From assembly GCF_001017655.1 (NCBI RefSeq), contig NZ_CP010904.1, positions 360,001 to 392,000 on the forward strand: a DNA stretch of 32,000 bases, in the 5' to 3' direction. Shown piece by piece: positions 1,256-12,892 of this stretch (its first letter is position 1; the number at the start of each line of letters is the position of its first letter). The notes under the pieces were generated by a model. That model saw only the letters and a program-made list of their open reading frames with translations, searched no databases and was not told the DNA's origin. Source of the DNA: Kiritimatiella glycovorans. GTDB taxonomy: Bacteria > Verrucomicrobiota > Kiritimatiellia > Kiritimatiellales > Kiritimatiellaceae. The position numbers and the translations under genes were made by a program.

Positions 1256-3838
1256 ATGGGTTATTCAATCAGGGATTCATGGAAACGCGCGGCGGGTCTG
1301 ATCCTGCTTGCGGGTGCGTTGCTCGGGGGTCTGCTGCTGGTGCGTACGGGGGTTGACGCCAGGGACGTGCTCGGCGAGGACGAGGTCGAGCTGCGTTTCG
1401 AGTCCTACTTCGCCTTCTCGCCCTCGGTGCGCGAGATGATCCGTGAGTTCGAGCATCTCTGCAGGAGGCGTCATGAGGCCACGGACGGCGAGTATCCCCT
1501 GTACAAGATCAGCGTCCAGCAGTCGGCCAATCGCGGCGAATCCGAGGATCCCACTCGTTTTGTGCTCAGCCTGATCGGCGGCGACCCGGCGGACGTGGTT
1601 TTTTTCGGCGATCATGTGATGGCGAAGTGGGCGTCGATCGACGCCTTCACGCCGCTCCGTCAGTACATGGAACGCGACCGCGAGGCGTGGGAGCGCTGGC
1701 AGGAGGAGAAGGAGCGCCGTGGTCGGGACGTCCTTCCCCCGTGGCCGGGCGCGGAGGCTGAAGCGCCTCGTGCGGAGGGGGCGCGGGCGCTGGCGGCGAT
1801 CGAACCCATTGACCGCGGGGACTATTTCGAGGCGTGCTGGCGGCAGGCCACCTACACCGACCCGAAGACCGGCGATGCGGACGTGTACGGGATTCCCTGC
1901 TGGGTGAACAGTCGTGCGCTGATCTACAACAAGGACATCCTGGTCCGCCACGGCTACACCAATGCGGCGGGCGAAGCGCGTCCGCCGCGCAACTGGGATG
2001 AACTCAGGGAGATGGCCGTAGGACTCACCGAGCGGGATGAGCAGGGCAACATGGATGTCGTCGGATTTATCCCCAACTACGGGAATGCCTGGCTGTATAT
2101 GTACGGCTGGCAGAACGGCGGCCGGTTCATGAGCGAAGACCGCACCACGGTCACGATGGACGATCCGCCGATCGTCGATGCGCTGGATTATGTGGTCGAT
2201 ATCTATGACCGCCTCGGTGGGGTGCAGGAGGTCAACGCCTTCGGAAGCTCCTTCCAGTCCGGTGCGTTGGATCCGTTTATCCTCGGCAAGGTGGCGATGA
2301 AGATCGACGGCGTGTGGAGCGTCGAGGATCTCGCCAAGTACGGGGAGAACCTCAATTTCGGGTGCTGTCCGGCCCCGATGCCGCAGGAGCAGCTGGACCG
2401 GGGGCGGGAACCGATTTCGTGGATCGGAGGGTCGAGTTACGCGATTCCCGCGAACTCCGATCACAAGCAGGGCGCGTGGGACTTTATCCGGTTTCTGCGC
2501 AGCCGCCGCGCGCAGCAGATCCGCTGCGCCGCCAAGTACTACGAAAACCTGGCCAAGGGCCAGTCGTATATCCCCACTCAGGACCCCAACCGCAGCCATA
2601 ACCGATGGGCGTACGAGCACTATGTCGTCGATAACGACAGTCTGAAACCCGAGCTGAAACACGCCATCAAGGTCTTCAACGATCTGCTCCCGGTGTCGAA
2701 GAACCGTCCGGTGACGCCGGTCGGGCAGAAGCTCTGGGACGCGCAGCTCTCGGCGACCGATGATGCGGTCTATCACCGCAGGACCCCGCAGGAGGCCTGC
2801 GAGTATCACAATGCCCAGGTGCAGCGCGAACTGAATGAATTGCTCTATCCCGCGCCCGGGGTCACGATCACGGACTGGACATGGTTTATCGTGTTGTACG
2901 GGGCTATCCTGGCGGCGCTCGCCGTCTGGGGGGTGCGCAATTACCGCCGGCGCGACACCGGAGGGCCGGGAACAAAACAGTGGTATGGCGGGCTCATTTC
3001 GGCCGCGCCGTGGATCATAGGGTTTGTCGCCCTGATCGGCGGGCCGTTGCTCTTTTCGATCGTTCTGAGCTTCTGCCGCTACGACGTGCTGAGTCCGGCG
3101 GTATTCATCGGCCTGGACAATTTCAGCAGGATGTTTGTCGAGGACGACCTCTTCTTTAAATCGCTCGGGAATACGGTATTCATGATCATCGGCGTCCCGC
3201 TCGGCCTCGCGACGGGGCTGGGGATGGCGCTGCTGCTCACGCAGAAAGTCCGCGGCGTCGCCCTCTGGAGGACGCTGTTCTACATCCCGAGCATCGTGCC
3301 GCACGTGGCCGCGAGCATTCTCTGGATCTGGATTTTCAACCCTTCGGGCGGACTGCTCAACCAGGCGCTGGGCATCTTCGGCCTCGAAGGCCCGCTGTGG
3401 CTGCAGGACCCGCGCACCGCCAAGCCGGCCCTGATCCTCATGAGCCTCTGGGCCGCGGGGGGGACGATGATCATCTGGATCGCGGGGTTGAAGAGCATCA
3501 GTGAGTCCTATTACGAGGCGGCGGCGATCGACGGCGCCAGCGCATGGCAGAAGTTCCGCTTCATTACGCTGCCGATGCTGACGCCGTACATCCTCTTCAA
3601 TCTGATCATGGGCATGATTATCACGTTCCAGGTCTTTACGCAGGCCTTCATCATGACCGGCGGCGGCCCGGTGAACTCGACGCTCTTCTATGTGTACCAT
3701 CTCTTCAATCAGGCGTTCCGTTATCTGAACATGGGGTATGCGGCGGCGATGGCGTGGTTCCTCTTCCTGATCATTGCCGTGCTCACGTTCTTCCAGCTCA
3801 AGGCCTCGAAGAAATGGGTCCATTACGAGGGCGGATAG
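1256..3838 (+). CDS. Fusion protein: N-terminal membrane anchor + family-1 extracellular solute-binding protein (sugar ABC type) + extra TM + MalF/UgpA-type ABC permease domain
   Basis: 860-aa ORF. The N-terminal TM is AAGLILLAGALLGGLLLV. SBP-like motifs are DPADVVFFGDHVMAKWASIDAFTPL, YGIPCWVNSRALIYNKDIL and NWDELREMA. A second TM (WFIVLYGAILAALAVWGV) and a basic linker follow, then a typical permease (PWIIGFVALIGGPLLFSIVLSF) with the EAA loop YEAAAIDGASAWQKFRFITLPML. Confidence 0.8.
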   Translation: MGYSIRDSWKRAAGLILLAGALLGGLLLVRTGVDARDVLGEDEVELRFESYFAFSPSVREMIREFEHLCRRRHEATDGEYPLYKISVQQSANRGESEDPTRFVLSLIGGDPADVVFFGDHVMAKWASIDAFTPLRQYMERDREAWERWQEEKERRGRDVLPPWPGAEAEAPRAEGARALAAIEPIDRGDYFEACWRQATYTDPKTGDADVYGIPCWVNSRALIYNKDILVRHGYTNAAGEARPPRNWDELREMAVGLTERDEQGNMDVVGFIPNYGNAWLYMYGWQNGGRFMSEDRTTVTMDDPPIVDALDYVVDIYDRLGGVQEVNAFGSSFQSGALDPFILGKVAMKIDGVWSVEDLAKYGENLNFGCCPAPMPQEQLDRGREPISWIGGSSYAIPANSDHKQGAWDFIRFLRSRRAQQIRCAAKYYENLAKGQSYIPTQDPNRSHNRWAYEHYVVDNDSLKPELKHAIKVFNDLLPVSKNRPVTPVGQKLWDAQLSATDDAVYHRRTPQEACEYHNAQVQRELNELLYPAPGVTITDWTWFIVLYGAILAALAVWGVRNYRRRDTGGPGTKQWYGGLISAAPWIIGFVALIGGPLLFSIVLSFCRYDVLSPAVFIGLDNFSRMFVEDDLFFKSLGNTVFMIIGVPLGLATGLGMALLLTQKVRGVALWRTLFYIPSIVPHVAASILWIWIFNPSGGLLNQALGIFGLEGPLWLQDPRTAKPALILMSLWAAGGTMIIWIAGLKSISESYYEAAAIDGASAWQKFRFITLPMLTPYILFNLIMGMIITFQVFTQAFIMTGGGPVNSTLFYVYHLFNQAFRYLNMGYAAAMAWFLFLIIAVLTFFQLKASKKWVHYEGG

Positions 3839-5560: not shown

Positions 5561-6793
5561 TTAATCGTCTCTATCCCCGCGCATCTCCCGCCGGTACCGC
5601 CCCGGTGTTACGCCGGTGGCCTGCCGGAAGCGGCGGATGAAGTAGCTCTGTTCGCCGAAACCGACGTCGAGCGCGATGTCGGCGCAGGTGCGATCGGTCT
5701 GCTCCAGCAGGCGGCGCGATTCCTCGACCCTTCTGCGGCGGAGGTGTTCGACAATCGTGCGGCCCGTCACCTCCTTGGTCAGATGTGCAATACGGCTGAC
5801 ACTGAGTCCCGCGGCGCCGGCGACGTCCTCCAGCGTGAGCGGCTCGCGGAAGCGCATCTCGATACAGCGCAGCGCGGCATAGACCGGGGTGCTCGATCCG
5901 CTGGCGCCCACGAGGTACATGCTGTCCATGAATGCGTTGAGCGCCTCGATCACCGTGCCCGTCAATTCCTCGAAATCGTGCGCCTGCACGATCTTTCCCA
6001 TCCACTCGTAGTTGCGCTCGATCGCCGGACTGAGCCGCGGGTGATCTTCCACGGCGGCGCGCACGAGATAACCCATCATCTCCGTCGCGCGGGCGCGGAG
6101 GATGTGGATGTCCGGCGAGCGCGCAAACATCGACCCGAGCAGCCGGTTCAGGATGCGCCGCGCCCCCTTGCGGTCGCCGCTCTTCATCAGCGCCAGCAGC
6201 GTGCGCTCCTCGTCCAGCGGGTAGACCGGCCGCGGTGCCGCGTCGCGGGGATACAGCGTGTCGGTCATCTTCCGCCTCCGGATCGCTTCGGCCCGGTTCC
6301 GGTCGAGGATTCCGGGACGCCAGCCGCTGATGCGGTAGAAGGCGGTGAAGACGGCATCGGCCATGCGCCGCGCCAGGGCTTCGTCGCCGGCCGGCCGCGC
6401 CTCCGCTTCCGCCTCGGCCTCCGCACGCGTACAGCCGGCCGCCATCAGGTTCGTCACGCACTCCCGGCGCGCCTGCGGTCCGTCCGCGGTCAGCCGCGGC
6501 GTGCCGGTCAGCGCTCCGTTCAGGTCGTTCCCGTCGTTGAGCGGTACGATCCAGCTCAGCAGGCCCGGCAGGAGACTGAACACCCAGGGTTCACCCCAGC
6601 GGACGGATTCCTGAAAGGCCTCGCGACGGGACTGAACCGGAGACTCCGCGTTCAGCCAGCCGGAAGGAACCCCCGCCTCCCGAAGAGAACCGGCCAGATG
6701 CCCCTCCGGTGAACAGAGATAAAACGATTCCGCCTCCAGAGATTCCAGTTCTTCATAAAGGCGGGTTTGAAGTTCATGTGACAAAATCGGCAT
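5561..6793 (-). CDS. AraC/XylS-family transcriptional regulator with a roughly 290-aa uncharacterised N-terminal sensor region
   Basis: The C-terminal double HTH is LTLEDVAGAAGLSVSRIAHLTKEVTGRTIVEHLRRRRVEESRRLLEQTDRTCADIALDVGFGEQSYFIRRFRQATGVTPGRYRRE. ATG at 6793. It is divergent from the corrinoid protein gene. Confidence 0.8.
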   Translation of the reverse strand: MPILSHELQTRLYEELESLEAESFYLCSPEGHLAGSLREAGVPSGWLNAESPVQSRREAFQESVRWGEPWVFSLLPGLLSWIVPLNDGNDLNGALTGTPRLTADGPQARRECVTNLMAAGCTRAEAEAEAEARPAGDEALARRMADAVFTAFYRISGWRPGILDRNRAEAIRRRKMTDTLYPRDAAPRPVYPLDEERTLLALMKSGDRKGARRILNRLLGSMFARSPDIHILRARATEMMGYLVRAAVEDHPRLSPAIERNYEWMGKIVQAHDFEELTGTVIEALNAFMDSMYLVGASGSSTPVYAALRCIEMRFREPLTLEDVAGAAGLSVSRIAHLTKEVTGRTIVEHLRRRRVEESRRLLEQTDRTCADIALDVGFGEQSYFIRRFRQATGVTPGRYRREMRGDRDD

Positions 6794-6976: not shown

Positions 6977-7603
6977 ATGGCCAAGAATGAAGAACTGTTC
7001 CAGGCGGTGACGAAGGGGAAGCGCAAAGACGTGCAGGAGATCGTGCAGAAGGCGGTCGACGGGGGCGCGTCGGTAGAAGAGCTTCTGATGGACTCGATGA
7101 TTCCCGCGATGAAAGAGGTCGGCGACCGCTTCTCGCGGAACGAGGCCTATGTGCCGGAAATGCTGATCGCGGCGCGCGCAATGCAGGCGGGGCTGGATAT
7201 TATCGATCCGATCCTCGCCGAGCAGGGCCACGAGCCGAAGGGCCGCGTGGTGATCGGCACGGTCAAGGGCGACCTGCACGATATCGGTAAGAACCTGGTG
7301 ACGATGATGGTGAAGGGCGCGGGGTACCATGTCGAGGACATCGGCGTGGACTGCGATGTAGAGAAGTATAAGAAGGCCGTCGAAGATACCGGATCCAAGG
7401 CGGTCCTGCTCAGCGCTCTGCTGACGACCACGATGCCGTACATGAAGGAAGTCGTCGAGGCGTTCAAGGATTCGGACGTCAAGGTGGTCATCGGCGGCGC
7501 TCCCGTCACGCAGGAGTATGCCGACGAGATCGGGGCCGACGGTTATTCGAGCGACGCCAACCTGGCCGTGAGCGAAGTCGATCGCGTACTCGGCCTGAGC
7601 TGA
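6977..7603 (+). CDS. Corrinoid (cobalamin-binding) protein of the methyltransferase-cognate MtaC/MtbC/MetH-B12-domain type
   Basis: 208 aa with an N-terminal helical cap and a Rossmann-like B12 domain carrying the DxHxxG motif (GDLHDIGKNLV), followed by LLSALLTTTM and VVIGGAPV. RBS GGGAGG lies 7 nt upstream of the ATG. Confidence 0.85.
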   Translation: MAKNEELFQAVTKGKRKDVQEIVQKAVDGGASVEELLMDSMIPAMKEVGDRFSRNEAYVPEMLIAARAMQAGLDIIDPILAEQGHEPKGRVVIGTVKGDLHDIGKNLVTMMVKGAGYHVEDIGVDCDVEKYKKAVEDTGSKAVLLSALLTTTMPYMKEVVEAFKDSDVKVVIGGAPVTQEYADEIGADGYSSDANLAVSEVDRVLGLS

Positions 7604-10588: not shown

Positions 10589-11521
10589 ATGAGGGGAATC
10601 GCCCCCGAACGTCAGATCACCAAACGCCCCAACATCCCGAGGGCCGCGCGCCGGCTGGCGTCGACCGGACTCGCCTTTGAATACTTCCGGGCGTTCAGCC
10701 AGAGCACGCACCAGTATCACACCCACCCGTTCGTCGAAGTGCTCTTCGTGCTGAACGGAACCTTCCGGCACGTCACGGCGGATCGGACGTATGATGAGAC
10801 GCGCGGAGGCGTGACGATCCTGAATTATCACCAGTACCACACGCTGAAGACCCCGCGCGGTCCGGTGGAGCTGATGAATCTGTATTGGGATCGGCGCCGC
10901 TATCCCGCTCCCCCCCTGCCGCCTTCGCTGGACCGGCGTCTGCATGATCTTATCCCGTCCCACCCGATGCTCGGTCACCGCCTGAACCGGGTCGTCCACC
11001 TTCAGCTCGCCGAGCCGGATCGTCCTCTTCAGCTTCTGGCCATGCTGTACGCGGAACAGGAACGCCCCGCCGATGGAAGCGAAACGGCGATCGAATCGCT
11101 CTTCCGGCTTCTCCTCATCGAGTTGTGCCGCGCTGCTCCGGCCGTCGTCCCGGAGCATACGGAATCTATCGATACGCCGGTCGAACGCGTACGGGTCTAT
11201 CTGGACGAGCATTTCAACGAGGCCGTTCCGCTTGATGACCTGTGCGCCGTCGCCCGATTGCGCCGCGCCAACCTCTGCCGACGGTTCAAACGCTACACCG
11301 GTCTCACCACGGGGGCGTATCTTCGGCAGCGGCGATTGGCGGAGGCCGTGCGCAGGCTTCGTACGACGGACGATAAAATCGCCGTGGTGTGTCTCGAGAG
11401 CGGGTTTTCCGATCTCTCCAATTTCAACCGGCTCTTTCGACAGGTATTCGGATGTACCCCCTCGGCCTTTCGCAATGAAGCCGAAGAGTGCACTCCCTTG
11501 AGGGTTGAGGGGCGACGGTAA
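10589..11521 (+). CDS. AraC-family transcriptional regulator with an N-terminal cupin-type sensor domain
   Basis: Cupin-like HTHPFVEVLFVLNGTFRHV. The C-terminal HTH is LDDLCAVARLRRANLCRRFKRYTGLTTGAYLRQRRLAEAVRRLRTTDDKIAVVCLESGFSDLSNFNRLFRQVFGCTPSAFR. The ATG lies 1 nt after the hydrolase stop, so the two genes look operonic. Confidence 0.8.
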   Translation: MRGIAPERQITKRPNIPRAARRLASTGLAFEYFRAFSQSTHQYHTHPFVEVLFVLNGTFRHVTADRTYDETRGGVTILNYHQYHTLKTPRGPVELMNLYWDRRRYPAPPLPPSLDRRLHDLIPSHPMLGHRLNRVVHLQLAEPDRPLQLLAMLYAEQERPADGSETAIESLFRLLLIELCRAAPAVVPEHTESIDTPVERVRVYLDEHFNEAVPLDDLCAVARLRRANLCRRFKRYTGLTTGAYLRQRRLAEAVRRLRTTDDKIAVVCLESGFSDLSNFNRLFRQVFGCTPSAFRNEAEECTPLRVEGRR

Positions 11522-11556
11522 CCTCGGGCCGACCTCGTCCATGCAGCGTTCGCCCT

Positions 11557-12007
11557 GGAGGGACGGGTTCCACCCCGTCCTCTTTTGCGGTCGGTGTGGA
11601 GGGACGGGTTCCACCCCGTCCTCTTTTGCGGTCGGCGTGGAGGGACGGGTTCCACCCCGTCCTCTTTTGCGTTCGCCCTGGAGGGACGGGTTCCACCCCG
11701 TCCTCTTTTGCGGTCGGCGTGGAGGGACGGGTTCCACCCCGTCCTCTTTTGCGGTCGGCGTGGAGGGACGGGTTCCACCCCGTCCTCTTTTGCGGTCGGT
11801 GTGGAGGGACGGGTTCCACCCCGTCCTCTTTTGCGGTCGGCGTGGAGGGACGGGTTCCACCCCGTCCGTGTTAGAGGTCGGCGTGGAGGGACGGGTTCCA
11901 CCCCGTCCGTGTTAGAGGTCGGCGTGGAGGGACGGGTTCCACCCCGTCCGTGTTAGAGGTCGGCGTGGAGGGACGGGTTCCACCCCGTCCTCTTTTGCGG
12001 TCGGCGT
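11557..12007 (+). repeat. Tandem array: 11 head-to-tail copies of a 41-bp unit, each with a 7-bp-stem hairpin
   Basis: The core GGAGGGACGGGTTCCACCCCGTCC starts at 11557+41k (k=0..10) and looks identical in all copies. The stem is GGACGGG/CCCGTCC and the loop is TTCCAC. The 17-nt linkers are TCTTTTGCGGTCGG(C/T)GT (units 1,2,4-7,11), TCTTTTGCGTTCGCCCT (unit 3) and GTGTTAGAGGTCGGCGT (units 8-10). There are no unique spacers. Confidence 0.95.
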
Positions 12008-12047
12008 GGAAGCCGACCCTCCATGCGGTTATCCGGGCTCCCGAACC

Positions 12048-12077
12048 TTGACAGGCGTTCGCGACGTATTGGACAAT
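12048..12077 (+). promoter_or_regulatory. Candidate thyX promoter immediately downstream of the repeat array
   Basis: TTGACA (12048-12053), 18-nt spacer, GACAAT (12072-12077). AGGAGG RBS at about 12112-12117 precedes the ATG at 12128. Confidence 0.3.
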
Positions 12078-12127
12078 GCCCCTCGTGCCCGGCGTTCCGG
12101 GGCGGGGAAACAGGAGGCGTTACGGCG

Positions 12128-12892
12128 ATGGGGGCGGTATCCATAGCGGTTGAACTGGTCGGGCACACCCCGGACGCGGAGGCGCTCGTCGCATCGGCGG
12201 CCCGGCTCTGTTACGCGGGGGGTGACGAGCATCCGTTCGATGCCGGCGCCGCGCAACGTGAGGGCATGATCGGCTTTCTGCGCAGCATGGGACACCTGAG
12301 TCCGCTCGAACACGCGGTTTTCTCGTTTTACATCCACGGCGTTTCGAGGGCGATGAGTCATCAATTGGTCCGTCATCGGCTGGCGAGCTATTCTCAGCGA
12401 AGCCAGCGTTACGTGGCGCACGACCGCTTCGATTACGTGATTCCTCCCTCCATGGAGGGCCGCCTCGTGAATACTCCGGAGGGGGAATCGCGCGATGCGG
12501 TGGAGTATTTCGAGGAGACCATGGCCCTGCTCGCCGAACGGTATCGCCTTCTGGGGGACGCCTTGGAGGGCTCGGGAGAGGAGCGCCGTCAGGATGCGCG
12601 CTACCTCCTGCCCAACGCCTGTGAAACACGCATCGCGGTGACGATGAATGCGCGCGTGCTGATGCACTTTTTCGAGGAGCGGCTCTGCCGCCGGGCGCAA
12701 TGGGAGATTCGTGAGGTCGCCGGGCAGATGCTCGCCCGGGTCAAGGACGTGTGTCCTGCTTTGTTCGCGGGCTGTGGCCCGAAGTGTCTGCGTTACGGGC
12801 GCTGTCCGGAGGGGGCGAAGGGTTGTGGACGGTATCACGAGATGCGGCGGTATTACCTGAATGCGGAGGGAGACGATGAAGGGGGATCTTAA
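12128..12892 (+). CDS. thyX: FAD-dependent thymidylate synthase ThyX
   Basis: ThyX signature RHRLASYSQRSQRY, plus SPLEHAVFSF and ARYLLPNACETRI. The ATG at 12128 with an AGGAGG RBS is preferred over the track start at 12023. Confidence 0.9.
   Translation: MGAVSIAVELVGHTPDAEALVASAARLCYAGGDEHPFDAGAAQREGMIGFLRSMGHLSPLEHAVFSFYIHGVSRAMSHQLVRHRLASYSQRSQRYVAHDRFDYVIPPSMEGRLVNTPEGESRDAVEYFEETMALLAERYRLLGDALEGSGEERRQDARYLLPNACETRIAVTMNARVLMHFFEERLCRRAQWEIREVAGQMLARVKDVCPALFAGCGPKCLRYGRCPEGAKGCGRYHEMRRYYLNAEGDDEGGS

Follow-up and report, generated by a model that had tools for sequence, protein, structure and literature searches.

The window analysed here, a stretch of 32,000 nucleotides from Kiritimatiella glycovorans (contig NZ_CP010904.1, positions 360,001 to 392,000), contains a cluster of hairpin repeats between a gene for an AraC-family regulator and the thyX gene. 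The hairpins are read here as elements of the repetitive extragenic palindrome (REP) type. The cluster starts 35 nt past the stop codon of the araC-like gene (stop 11521) and ends 25 nt ahead of the -35 hexamer of a promoter candidate for thyX, and the array is intergenic in the window. An earlier, sequence-only reading of this DNA had placed the repeats between an araC-like gene and thyX, with a candidate thyX promoter downstream; both genes were confirmed by Pfam matches, and the promoter candidate was recovered as TTGACA-18-GACAAT. The features of the locus are given below, where R1 is a covariance model that was built from 29 hairpin variants of other genomes only.

10589..11521, + strand: upstream gene for an AraC-family regulator (Pfam HTH_18 82 bits, HTH_AraC, AraC_binding)
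11546..11555, + strand: left flank GCGTTCGCCC, its end a C-T step immediately 5' of the first TGGAG head
11556..12006, + strand: head-to-tail array of 11 units x 41 bp (Tandem Repeats Finder and units aligned in register)
11556..11580, + strand: forward REP 1, TGGAG head and GGACGGG-TTCCAC-CCCGTCC (R1, 41.9 bits)
11597..11621, + strand: forward REP 2 (core match and R1)
11638..11662, + strand: forward REP 3 (core match and R1)
11669..11678, + strand: copy of the left flank, GCGTTCGCCC, within unit 3
11679..11703, + strand: forward REP 4 (core match and R1)
11720..11744, + strand: forward REP 5 (core match and R1)
11761..11785, + strand: forward REP 6 (core match and R1)
11802..11826, + strand: forward REP 7 (core match and R1)
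11843..11867, + strand: forward REP 8, followed by a class-B spacer (R1, 43.3 bits)
11868..11875, 11909-11916 and 11950-11957, + strand: class-B spacer GTGTTAGA in place of TCTTTTGC, without U-tract
11884..11908, + strand: forward REP 9, followed by a class-B spacer (core match and R1)
11925..11949, + strand: forward REP 10, followed by a class-B spacer (core match and R1)
11966..11990, + strand: forward REP 11, which forms the left arm of the complete doublet (core match and R1)
11966..12023, unstranded: complete REP doublet of 58 nt, similar to a REP doublet forming hairpin (REPIN), heads outward, with the 8-nt spacer TCTTTTGC (unit 11 and the inverted copy)
11999..12023, - strand: inverted partner REP, minus strand TGGAG-GGTCGGC-TTCCAC-GCCGACC (R1, 40.5 bits, E 1.2e-8)
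12048..12077, + strand: sigma-70-like promoter candidate for thyX, TTGACA-18-GACAAT, downstream of the whole cluster
12128..12892, + strand: thyX, ATG at 12128, AGGAGG at 12113-12118 (Thy1, 218 bits; product with 100% identity to ThyX of K. glycovorans)

Tandem Repeats Finder delimited the 41-bp repeat at 11556-12010, with a period of 41, 11.1 copies, 95% matches and 0 indels. The 24-nt core GGAGGGACGGGTTCCACCCCGTCC is present in 11 exact copies at 11557 + 41k up to 11967, on the + strand only, which agrees in full with the eleven units of exact 41-bp period and identical core described from the sequence alone. The 20-nt hairpin within the core has a 7-bp stem (6 G-C pairs and 1 A-U pair) and a 6-nt loop, and it yielded 11 matches in the window at up to 3 mismatches, as compared to 0.00 expected and no match in 100 shuffles. 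Of the two linker classes that had been proposed, both exist, with class B (GTGTTAGAGGTCGGCG) confined to units 8-10 and class A (TCTTTTGCGGTCGG(C/T)G) found in units 1, 2, 4-7 and 11. Class A is not uniform, since the linker of unit 3 is TCTTTTGCGTTCGCCC and units 1 and 6 have GGTG rather than GGCG. The last 10 nt of the unit 3 linker are a copy of the left flank of the array (11546-11555), and this copy marks a duplication that took flanking DNA into the array. The open reading frames (ORFs) that run through the array are spurious because the repeat has no stop codons, and they are closed by the TAG in the class-B spacer.

Right after the spacer of unit 11, the sequence GGTCGGC-GTGGAA-GCCGACC-CTCCA at 11999-12023 represents the same motif on the minus strand. 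Its head and loop are those of the core, while its stem is different yet complementary and thus compensated. Model R1 identified exactly 12 matches in the window, with scores of 41.1-43.3 bits for the 11 forward copies and 40.5 bits for the inverted copy, followed by a next best score of 11.6 bits. The reverse strand of the same hairpin obtained only 6.5 bits with this model, and the element is therefore strand-specific. As in a REPIN, the segment 11966-12023 consists of two inverted REPs separated by a short spacer, and 11966-12025 folds into a single long hairpin, both as RNA (-39.4 kcal/mol, z -5.95) and as DNA (-21.5 kcal/mol, z -5.7). Doublets of the same build, in which the spacer measures 3-34 nt, are present in 11 other assemblies.

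The inverted copy also explains the composition of the repeat unit. The final 8 nt of every standard unit, GGTCGGCG, are identical to the first 8 nt of the inverted copy, and GGTCGGCGTGGA is found at 7 unit junctions and once at 11999, where the inverted hairpin continues from it. Because the inverted copy begins in the same way as the units end, each 41-bp unit corresponds to a forward hairpin, a spacer and a truncated inverted hairpin, that is, 25 nt of forward REP, 8 nt of spacer and the 5' 8 nt of an inverted REP. The units are thus not autonomous; the inverted twelfth copy had been missed in the sequence-only reading.

We searched for the exact 20-nt hairpin in a collection with one genome per species (596 Gb in total), and the matching 8-kb loci were labelled L with a number. 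The hairpin was recovered from at least 120 stretches, which belong to about 50 other assemblies among the matches listed, where we estimate that about one match would be expected by chance. The comparison with relatives that had been proposed as a check thus identifies a dispersed family. Among the matches listed, the hosts are mostly Verrucomicrobiota (including Opitutaceae and Pelagicoccus), Kiritimatiellia (including Pontiellaceae) and Victivallales/Lentisphaerae, with several Bellilinea-type Chloroflexi and one Gemmatimonadaceae contig as further hosts. Many dispersed copies per genome, as in REP families, are seen in other genomes among these matches: one metagenome-assembled genome (MAG) classified as 'Deltaproteobacteria' contains at least 21 copies on 20 contigs, and two other genomes contain at least 12 and at least 9 loci. 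In the cultured Pontiellaceae B12227 (L127) and Pontiella agarivorans (L128), the hairpins are located in gaps between called genes. Further tandem arrays were also identified, with 3 copies at 39 bp in L011, doublet repeats of about 100 bp in L079 and L110, and additional arrays in L008 and L074.

An alignment of 141 copies shows that the conservation extends 5' of the stem. At positions -5 to -1, the predominant bases are T (65%), G (87%), G (79%), A (90%) and G (90%), with C-rich positions before them; a G follows the stem at +1 in 62% of the copies, and nothing else is conserved. The family head is (CC)TGGAG, in which TGGAG is conserved at 65-90% per position and specifies the strand, as does the head of a REP; in the Chloroflexi copies its place is taken by GTAGG, as in classical REPs. 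The 16-mer GGGTTCCACCCCGTCC has no occurrence in the collection of papers that was searched, and the REP sequence is not among the contents of the REP survey supplements.

Some copies of the family are part of larger repeats. In the 'Deltaproteobacteria' MAG (JAFDHO01), a composite repeat of about 110 nt is present on many contigs (L004, L016, L040, L048, L051, L060, L065, L095, L096, L114 and others) and consists of an inverted hairpin (GGTCATGC-AGGAGC-ATGACCCTCC), GATTC, a canonical REP and a conserved tail, GTTTCAGCCTGACAATTCTGGGAAAGATTTTCAAAGGTCT, which gives it the look of a miniature inverted-repeat transposable element. The Chloroflexi copies in L042, L068, L072, L098, L105 and L119 have a conserved AT-rich tail (…GAAAAT…TTTTGG) after the hairpin, and in several of them a partner inverted hairpin, GGGCGGGCATGGAAACCCGCCCCTACC, precedes the REP. 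In the viral collection, a single contig was matched (L126, IMG/VR), with GTAG-headed copies at 3174-3198 and 200-224. With only this one contig, and with a GTAG head, there is no sign of a phage origin in that collection; the contig could stem from a provirus or be a fragment of bacterial DNA that was misassigned.

We examined the pairing of the stem in variants from the loci that were selected by the head and the loop only (G[GT]AG-N7-TTCCAC-N7). Of 25 distinct variants, 21 form at least 6 of the 7 pairs, and the mean number of pairs is 6.08, as compared to 4.75 when the partners are shuffled (maximum 5.36 in 1000 shuffles). Examples of the stems are GGTCCGG/CCGGACC, GGGCAAG/CTTGCCC, GGCCCGC/GCGGGCC and GGACGAC/GTCGTCC. 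Model R1 identified 159 matches in 100 loci. In an alignment of the 98 distinct rows among the best 150 of these matches, which is fitted to the model, 99.4% of the cells are paired, as compared to 82.8% in shuffled and 36-62% in slid alignments, and double-sided changes occur at 4 of the 7 pairs (86 cells). The hairpin is thus a short G+C-rich palindrome with compensatory change, as are REPs, and the pattern of substitutions indicates that its stem is under structural constraint.

For the identification of associated transposases, six-frame ORFs of the 120 loci were compared with an E. coli YafM-like sequence, which served as a search probe only. In 7 of the 120 8-kb loci, a small ORF with the motifs HUH...Y...NPV is located within tens of bases of the hairpins, where about 0.25 would be expected according to our estimate. 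These ORFs correspond to REP-associated tyrosine transposases (RAYTs) and contain the motifs HUH (MPDH[IVL]HLF) and Y..NPV. In two Opitutaceae loci (L082 and L021), a doublet of a canonical forward REP and an inverted partner is present on either side of the RAYT gene, while the RAYT gene in a Bellilinea locus (L113) is located between two inverted GTAG copies; L054, L104, L008 and L011 are similar. The RAYT of L113 matched Pfam Y1_Tnp with 46.8 bits, and a profile of the RAYT ORFs had a sole match in PDB, to TnpArep from E. coli (4ER8, E 6e-10). More than 4,500 homologs were retrieved with the profile, the best 120 of which are mostly unnamed; the names that occur among these 120 are 'REP element-mobilizing transposase RayT', 'REP-associated tyrosine transposase', 'putative transposase' and, in a few cases, 'hypothetical protein'. 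In P. agarivorans, a RAYT gene is located between an inverted GGAG-headed pair, at 5932-5956 (+) and 6550-6574 (-), and in Pontiellaceae B12227 several GGAG-headed hairpins are present on each side of the RAYT gene. A cognate RAYT gene flanked by REPs, as in REP systems, is thus found in other genomes, in the 7 loci and in these two cultured Kiritimatiellota.

Copies of the REP are also found inside ORFs, at L011:3890-3996, L008:1484-2209, L003:5349-5377 and 7361-7389, and L023:3075-3103. A triple copy with a period of 39 within the RAYT ORF of L011 is read as PDGVEPVPP, and another RAYT ORF and a YD/RHS-repeat ORF contain copies with the reading GGTGSTPS. Since some of these copies lie within RAYT ORFs, the transposase genes have been invaded by their own REPs.

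The most unusual secondary finding, which leaves the reading of the array as it is, concerns the transposases next to the hairpin. The RAYTs of Bellilinea (L113:2390-3175) and Opitutaceae (L082:3724-4489) have an identity of only 18%, and the identical 20-nt hairpin flanks both, with the head GTAGG in Bellilinea and TGGAG in Opitutaceae, which suggests that the hairpin has spread horizontally or that it is under a constraint independent of the transposase. We assign a low probability to the idea that the REP is kept constant by a factor other than the transposase, such as a conserved host factor or a role at the RNA level, or that REPIN-RAYT systems cross phyla, contrary to the view of a vertical inheritance. 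If the hairpin were held by a host factor or by a role at the RNA level, the array could serve thyX as a terminator or insulator of many hairpins that arose by exaptation.

Based on the anatomy of the repeat, its membership in a dispersed family, the covariation of the stem, the fold of the doublet and the RAYT genes next to the hairpin in other genomes, we conclude that the array is very probably a locally amplified tandem cluster of a REP-type mobile hairpin, from a RAYT-associated family with a GGAG head. A REP-like family, or one similar to bacterial interspersed mosaic elements (BIMEs), was one of the five roles suggested in the sequence-only reading, and it is the one that the dispersed copies, the head and the RAYT genes support. 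The same reading knew of no described element with such a unit; the unit can now be placed as a RAYT-associated REP with a GGAG variant of the GTAG head.

The 24-nt core would thus be a REP, that is, a strand-specific hairpin in single-stranded DNA with a conserved 5' head, which is recognised and spread by a RAYT of the HUH/Y1 type, and such a RAYT may have been active in K. glycovorans. The array may have started from one REP doublet (forward REP, TCTTTTGC and inverted REP) in the gap that separates the araC-like gene from the thyX promoter. Head-to-tail amplification would then have multiplied 41 bp of it, which extend from the forward REP through the spacer to the eighth nt of the inverted REP, with the join in a TGGA microhomology that is common to the loop of the inverted REP (GTGGAA) and the forward head (TGGAGG). 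Once the first duplication was in place, the 41-bp homology would have made it possible for slippage, unequal exchange or RAYT strand transfer to bring the number of copies to 11. Later diversification would have left its marks in the flank copy of unit 3, in the C/T variants and, in units 8-10, in a foreign spacer. As an amplified REP cluster, the array is therefore a by-product of mobile-element dynamics and not a purpose-built device.

Several observations weigh against this interpretation. The head is GGAG and not GTAG. All 12 REP copies of the 32-kb window are at one locus, and no RAYT gene is present in the window, so that the RAYT search proposed in the sequence-only reading was successful in 7 loci of other genomes and not at this locus. 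The other genes in the neighbourhood code for URO-D-family, lipase-like, AraC, ThyX, homocysteine methyltransferase, DHODH-like and PFOR proteins; the genome as a whole has 75 annotated transposase genes (PMC5148204). Also, no K. glycovorans protein is among the best 120 of the more than 4,500 RAYT homologs, which is not evidence of absence. The scores for the NCBIfam model NF047646 ('REP-associated tyrosine transposase') are at or just under the cutoff of 80 bits, with 80.8 bits for L082 and 78 bits for L113. Some copies of the family are clearly within ORFs, and 72% of the copies are spanned by a stop-free frame, as compared to 86% of random positions, in a test that has low power in G+C-rich DNA. 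Folding, which had been suggested as a further check, separates the doublet segment from shuffled sequences (z about -6) but not the single 41-nt unit, the fold of which is no more stable than that of its shuffles (z of -0.3 to -0.5 for the + strand and of -1.45 for the minus strand). Finally, the internal junctions of the array are G-T, and a C-T junction is found only where flank sequence precedes the head, before units 1 and 4, so that a junction made by a RAYT is not favoured over slippage. Slippage or unequal exchange at TGGA is for this reason favoured over a cut of the E. coli type, and the specificity of the RAYTs in the Planctomycetes-Verrucomicrobia-Chlamydiae (PVC) superphylum may differ.

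The class-A units resemble intrinsic terminators, with a 7-bp stem, a 6-nt loop and a UCUUUU tail on the + strand only, which is the strand of both flanking genes, and the cluster ends 25 bp before the thyX -35 hexamer. Stacked terminators, or an insulator that ensures tight termination of the araC-like transcript ahead of the thyX promoter, could accordingly be the primary selected function of the array, an explanation that we consider possible and, on balance, unlikely. A consensus terminator scan passes only 1 of the 11 units, and according to our reading the others meet the T rule if a stem of 7 rather than 8 bp is accepted. At least 4 T in the 8 nt after the stem are present in only 13 of the 141 family copies, and units 8-10 have no U-tract; the U-tract of class A is thus a local accident of the spacer and not a trait of the family. 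The terminator resemblance noted from the sequence alone is fair for the class-A units. The same hairpin is found elsewhere beside unrelated genes and inside ORFs, and the nearest thyX relatives have no array: the closest ThyX proteins (67-70% identity; L129 and L130) have other upstream genes, with neither an AraC gene nor a REP, and a metagenome scan with ThyX matched only relatives of 58-63% identity, all without REPs. Moreover, a single terminator would be enough, and a set of eleven identical copies speaks for an amplification in the recent past and not for selection. A terminator role is nevertheless compatible with a secondary, exapted effect of the REP cluster. The local effect of the array is probably on RNA: the eight hairpins with UCUUUU tails and the long terminal hairpin would stop or attenuate read-through and protect the 3' end of the upstream mRNA, which is plausible as a secondary function; read-through attenuation and mRNA 3'-end protection have both been proposed for REPs in other settings (PMC3733652).

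An array of binding sites for the AraC-like regulator, IHF or gyrase, phased at about 4 helical turns and controlling thyX, is very improbable. The period of 41 bp is close to 4 x 10.5 bp, the linker of BIME-1 often has an IHF site (PMC3333891), and several host proteins reportedly bind to BIMEs in E. coli (PMC2817692). The period is a direct consequence of how long the duplicated segment is, though, and the motif is located beside many different genes in about 50 genomes among the matches listed, with no link to AraC; nor do the nearest thyX loci contain an AraC gene or an array. The regulator-binding array suggested earlier is thus left without support, and so is the suggested structured RNA. 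The hypervariable VNTR, another of the suggested roles, agrees with the observations. Regular repeats with a conserved hairpin, the stems of which covary across genomes, could indicate a gene for a structured non-coding RNA or an array similar to CRISPR. Rfam had no match at gathering thresholds in the whole window, and in E-value mode the segment 11450-12150 obtained only E of about 1-9, which is chance level. The 17-nt linkers fall into few near-identical classes instead of being unique as in CRISPR arrays, and no cas gene is among the neighbours. The element is dispersed as singletons and as inverted doublets around a transposase gene, and its conserved 5' head and the RAYT flanking fit recognition of single-stranded DNA, which brings the probability of an RNA gene or a CRISPR-like array close to nil. 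Short reads resolve near-identical 41-bp units poorly, and the count of copies may not be exact. An assembly artefact, in which a short repeat was collapsed or expanded, is still very improbable as an explanation of the array, because the genome (CP010904) was closed with PacBio RSII libraries of more than 10 kb and MiSeq reads (PMC5148204). The array is only 451 bp long, and its ordered variants (the flank copy, the C/T sites and the class-B block) are not producible by collapse or expansion.

A few other candidate features in and around the cluster were rejected. A likeness to tRNA or to a T-arm was dismissed, as ARAGORN found none and the loop is 6 nt and not 7. The loop UUCCAC is complementary to the 5' GUGGAG of its own unit, but upon inspection the 5' segment abuts the stem, and a pseudoknot of the two within a unit is sterically implausible. 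The segment that spans the stop codon of the araC-like gene, 11503-11542 (GAGGGGCGACGGTAACCTCGGGCCGACCTCGTCC), has a faint likeness to the REP head and 3' stem; as a decayed REP remnant it scores 7.6 bits (E 2.8) and folds no better than shuffles, and the likeness is probably due to chance. The G+C-rich hairpin in the presumed thyX leader at 12078-12127, between the promoter-like site and the ribosome-binding site, is not notable (z +0.6). Within the coding region of the araC-like gene, an imperfect direct repeat of 28 bp is present in 2 copies (10979-11034, 82% matches).

Identified as a REP cluster, this eye-catching array would be explained as ordinary mobile-element biology, with no new regulatory or defence system to chase. 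The analysis defines a family of GGAG-headed REPs, for which it provides a consensus and a covariance model, and which is common in Verrucomicrobiota, Kiritimatiellia and Lentisphaerota. The array would also illustrate cleanly that a REP doublet, once truncated, can give rise to head-to-tail repeats via a microhomology between loop and head. The unusually wide exact conservation of the REP hairpin provides material for studies of REP/RAYT co-evolution or horizontal spread.

REP families are usually lineage-specific, and the family described here differs from them in that the exact 20-mer is common to many genera and to two phylum-level groups. REPINs were reportedly described by Bertels and Rainey in 2011 as REP doublets forming hairpins. 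Like these, 11966-12023 has two inverted REPs, a short spacer and a long imperfect hairpin, and the doublets in L082 and L021 flank RAYT genes. Unlike REPINs, the doublet in K. glycovorans has a spacer of only 8 nt and arms with different stems (GGACGGG and GGTCGGC). The class-A units share with Rho-independent terminators a G+C-rich hairpin, after which UCUUUU comes next when the coding strand of the upstream gene is read. They differ in that the U-tract is short, interrupted and absent from units 8-10 and from 128 of the 141 family copies, and in that the sequence of the hairpin is conserved across phyla.

The resemblance to REP/RAYT systems, such as E. coli TnpArep (4ER8) and the REPs of Opitutus terrae, is broader. 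As in these systems, the element is a G+C-rich stem-loop of 20-25 nt with a conserved 5' head of 4-5 bases, and the family is strand-specific, with many dispersed copies and with inverted doublets around a single small HUH/Y1 gene (PMC3733652). Clusters are likewise frequent, and copies are occasionally found inside genes (PMC3733652). In a survey of GTAG/CGTC REPs, GTAG REPs were recorded in Chloroflexi and the PVC superphylum and were very abundant in O. terrae (PMC3733652). Heads can be degenerate, with GTGG in most of the GTAG-20 elements of O. terrae, and the predominant form is inverted dimers with the heads outward (PMC3733652). The present family departs from these systems in its head, (CC)TGGAG and not GTAG. 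E. coli TnpArep binds the REP via GTAG and a mismatch in the stem and cleaves single-stranded DNA at a C-T step, and the perfect 7-bp stem of the K. glycovorans element has no such mismatch, which TnpArep requires (PMC3333891).

Compared with BIMEs, in which a REP and an inverted REP alternate in every unit, the K. glycovorans unit retains a forward REP and 8 nt of an inverted one, so that 10 of the 11 units have a single forward REP and only the last pair is complete. Strictly speaking, the array is therefore no BIME. In E. coli, BIME-2 elements are found in tandem, with good conservation among the copies of one locus and with copy numbers that differ between strains, and strand transfer by TnpArep can build tandem copies in vitro (PMC3333891). 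The array in K. glycovorans shares with BIME-2 and the tandem REP clusters of E. coli and Pseudomonas the reiteration at one intergenic locus, the near-identical copies, the variable linkers and the flanking DNA that is carried along (PMC3333891, PMC3733652), and these tandem clusters are its closest parallel.

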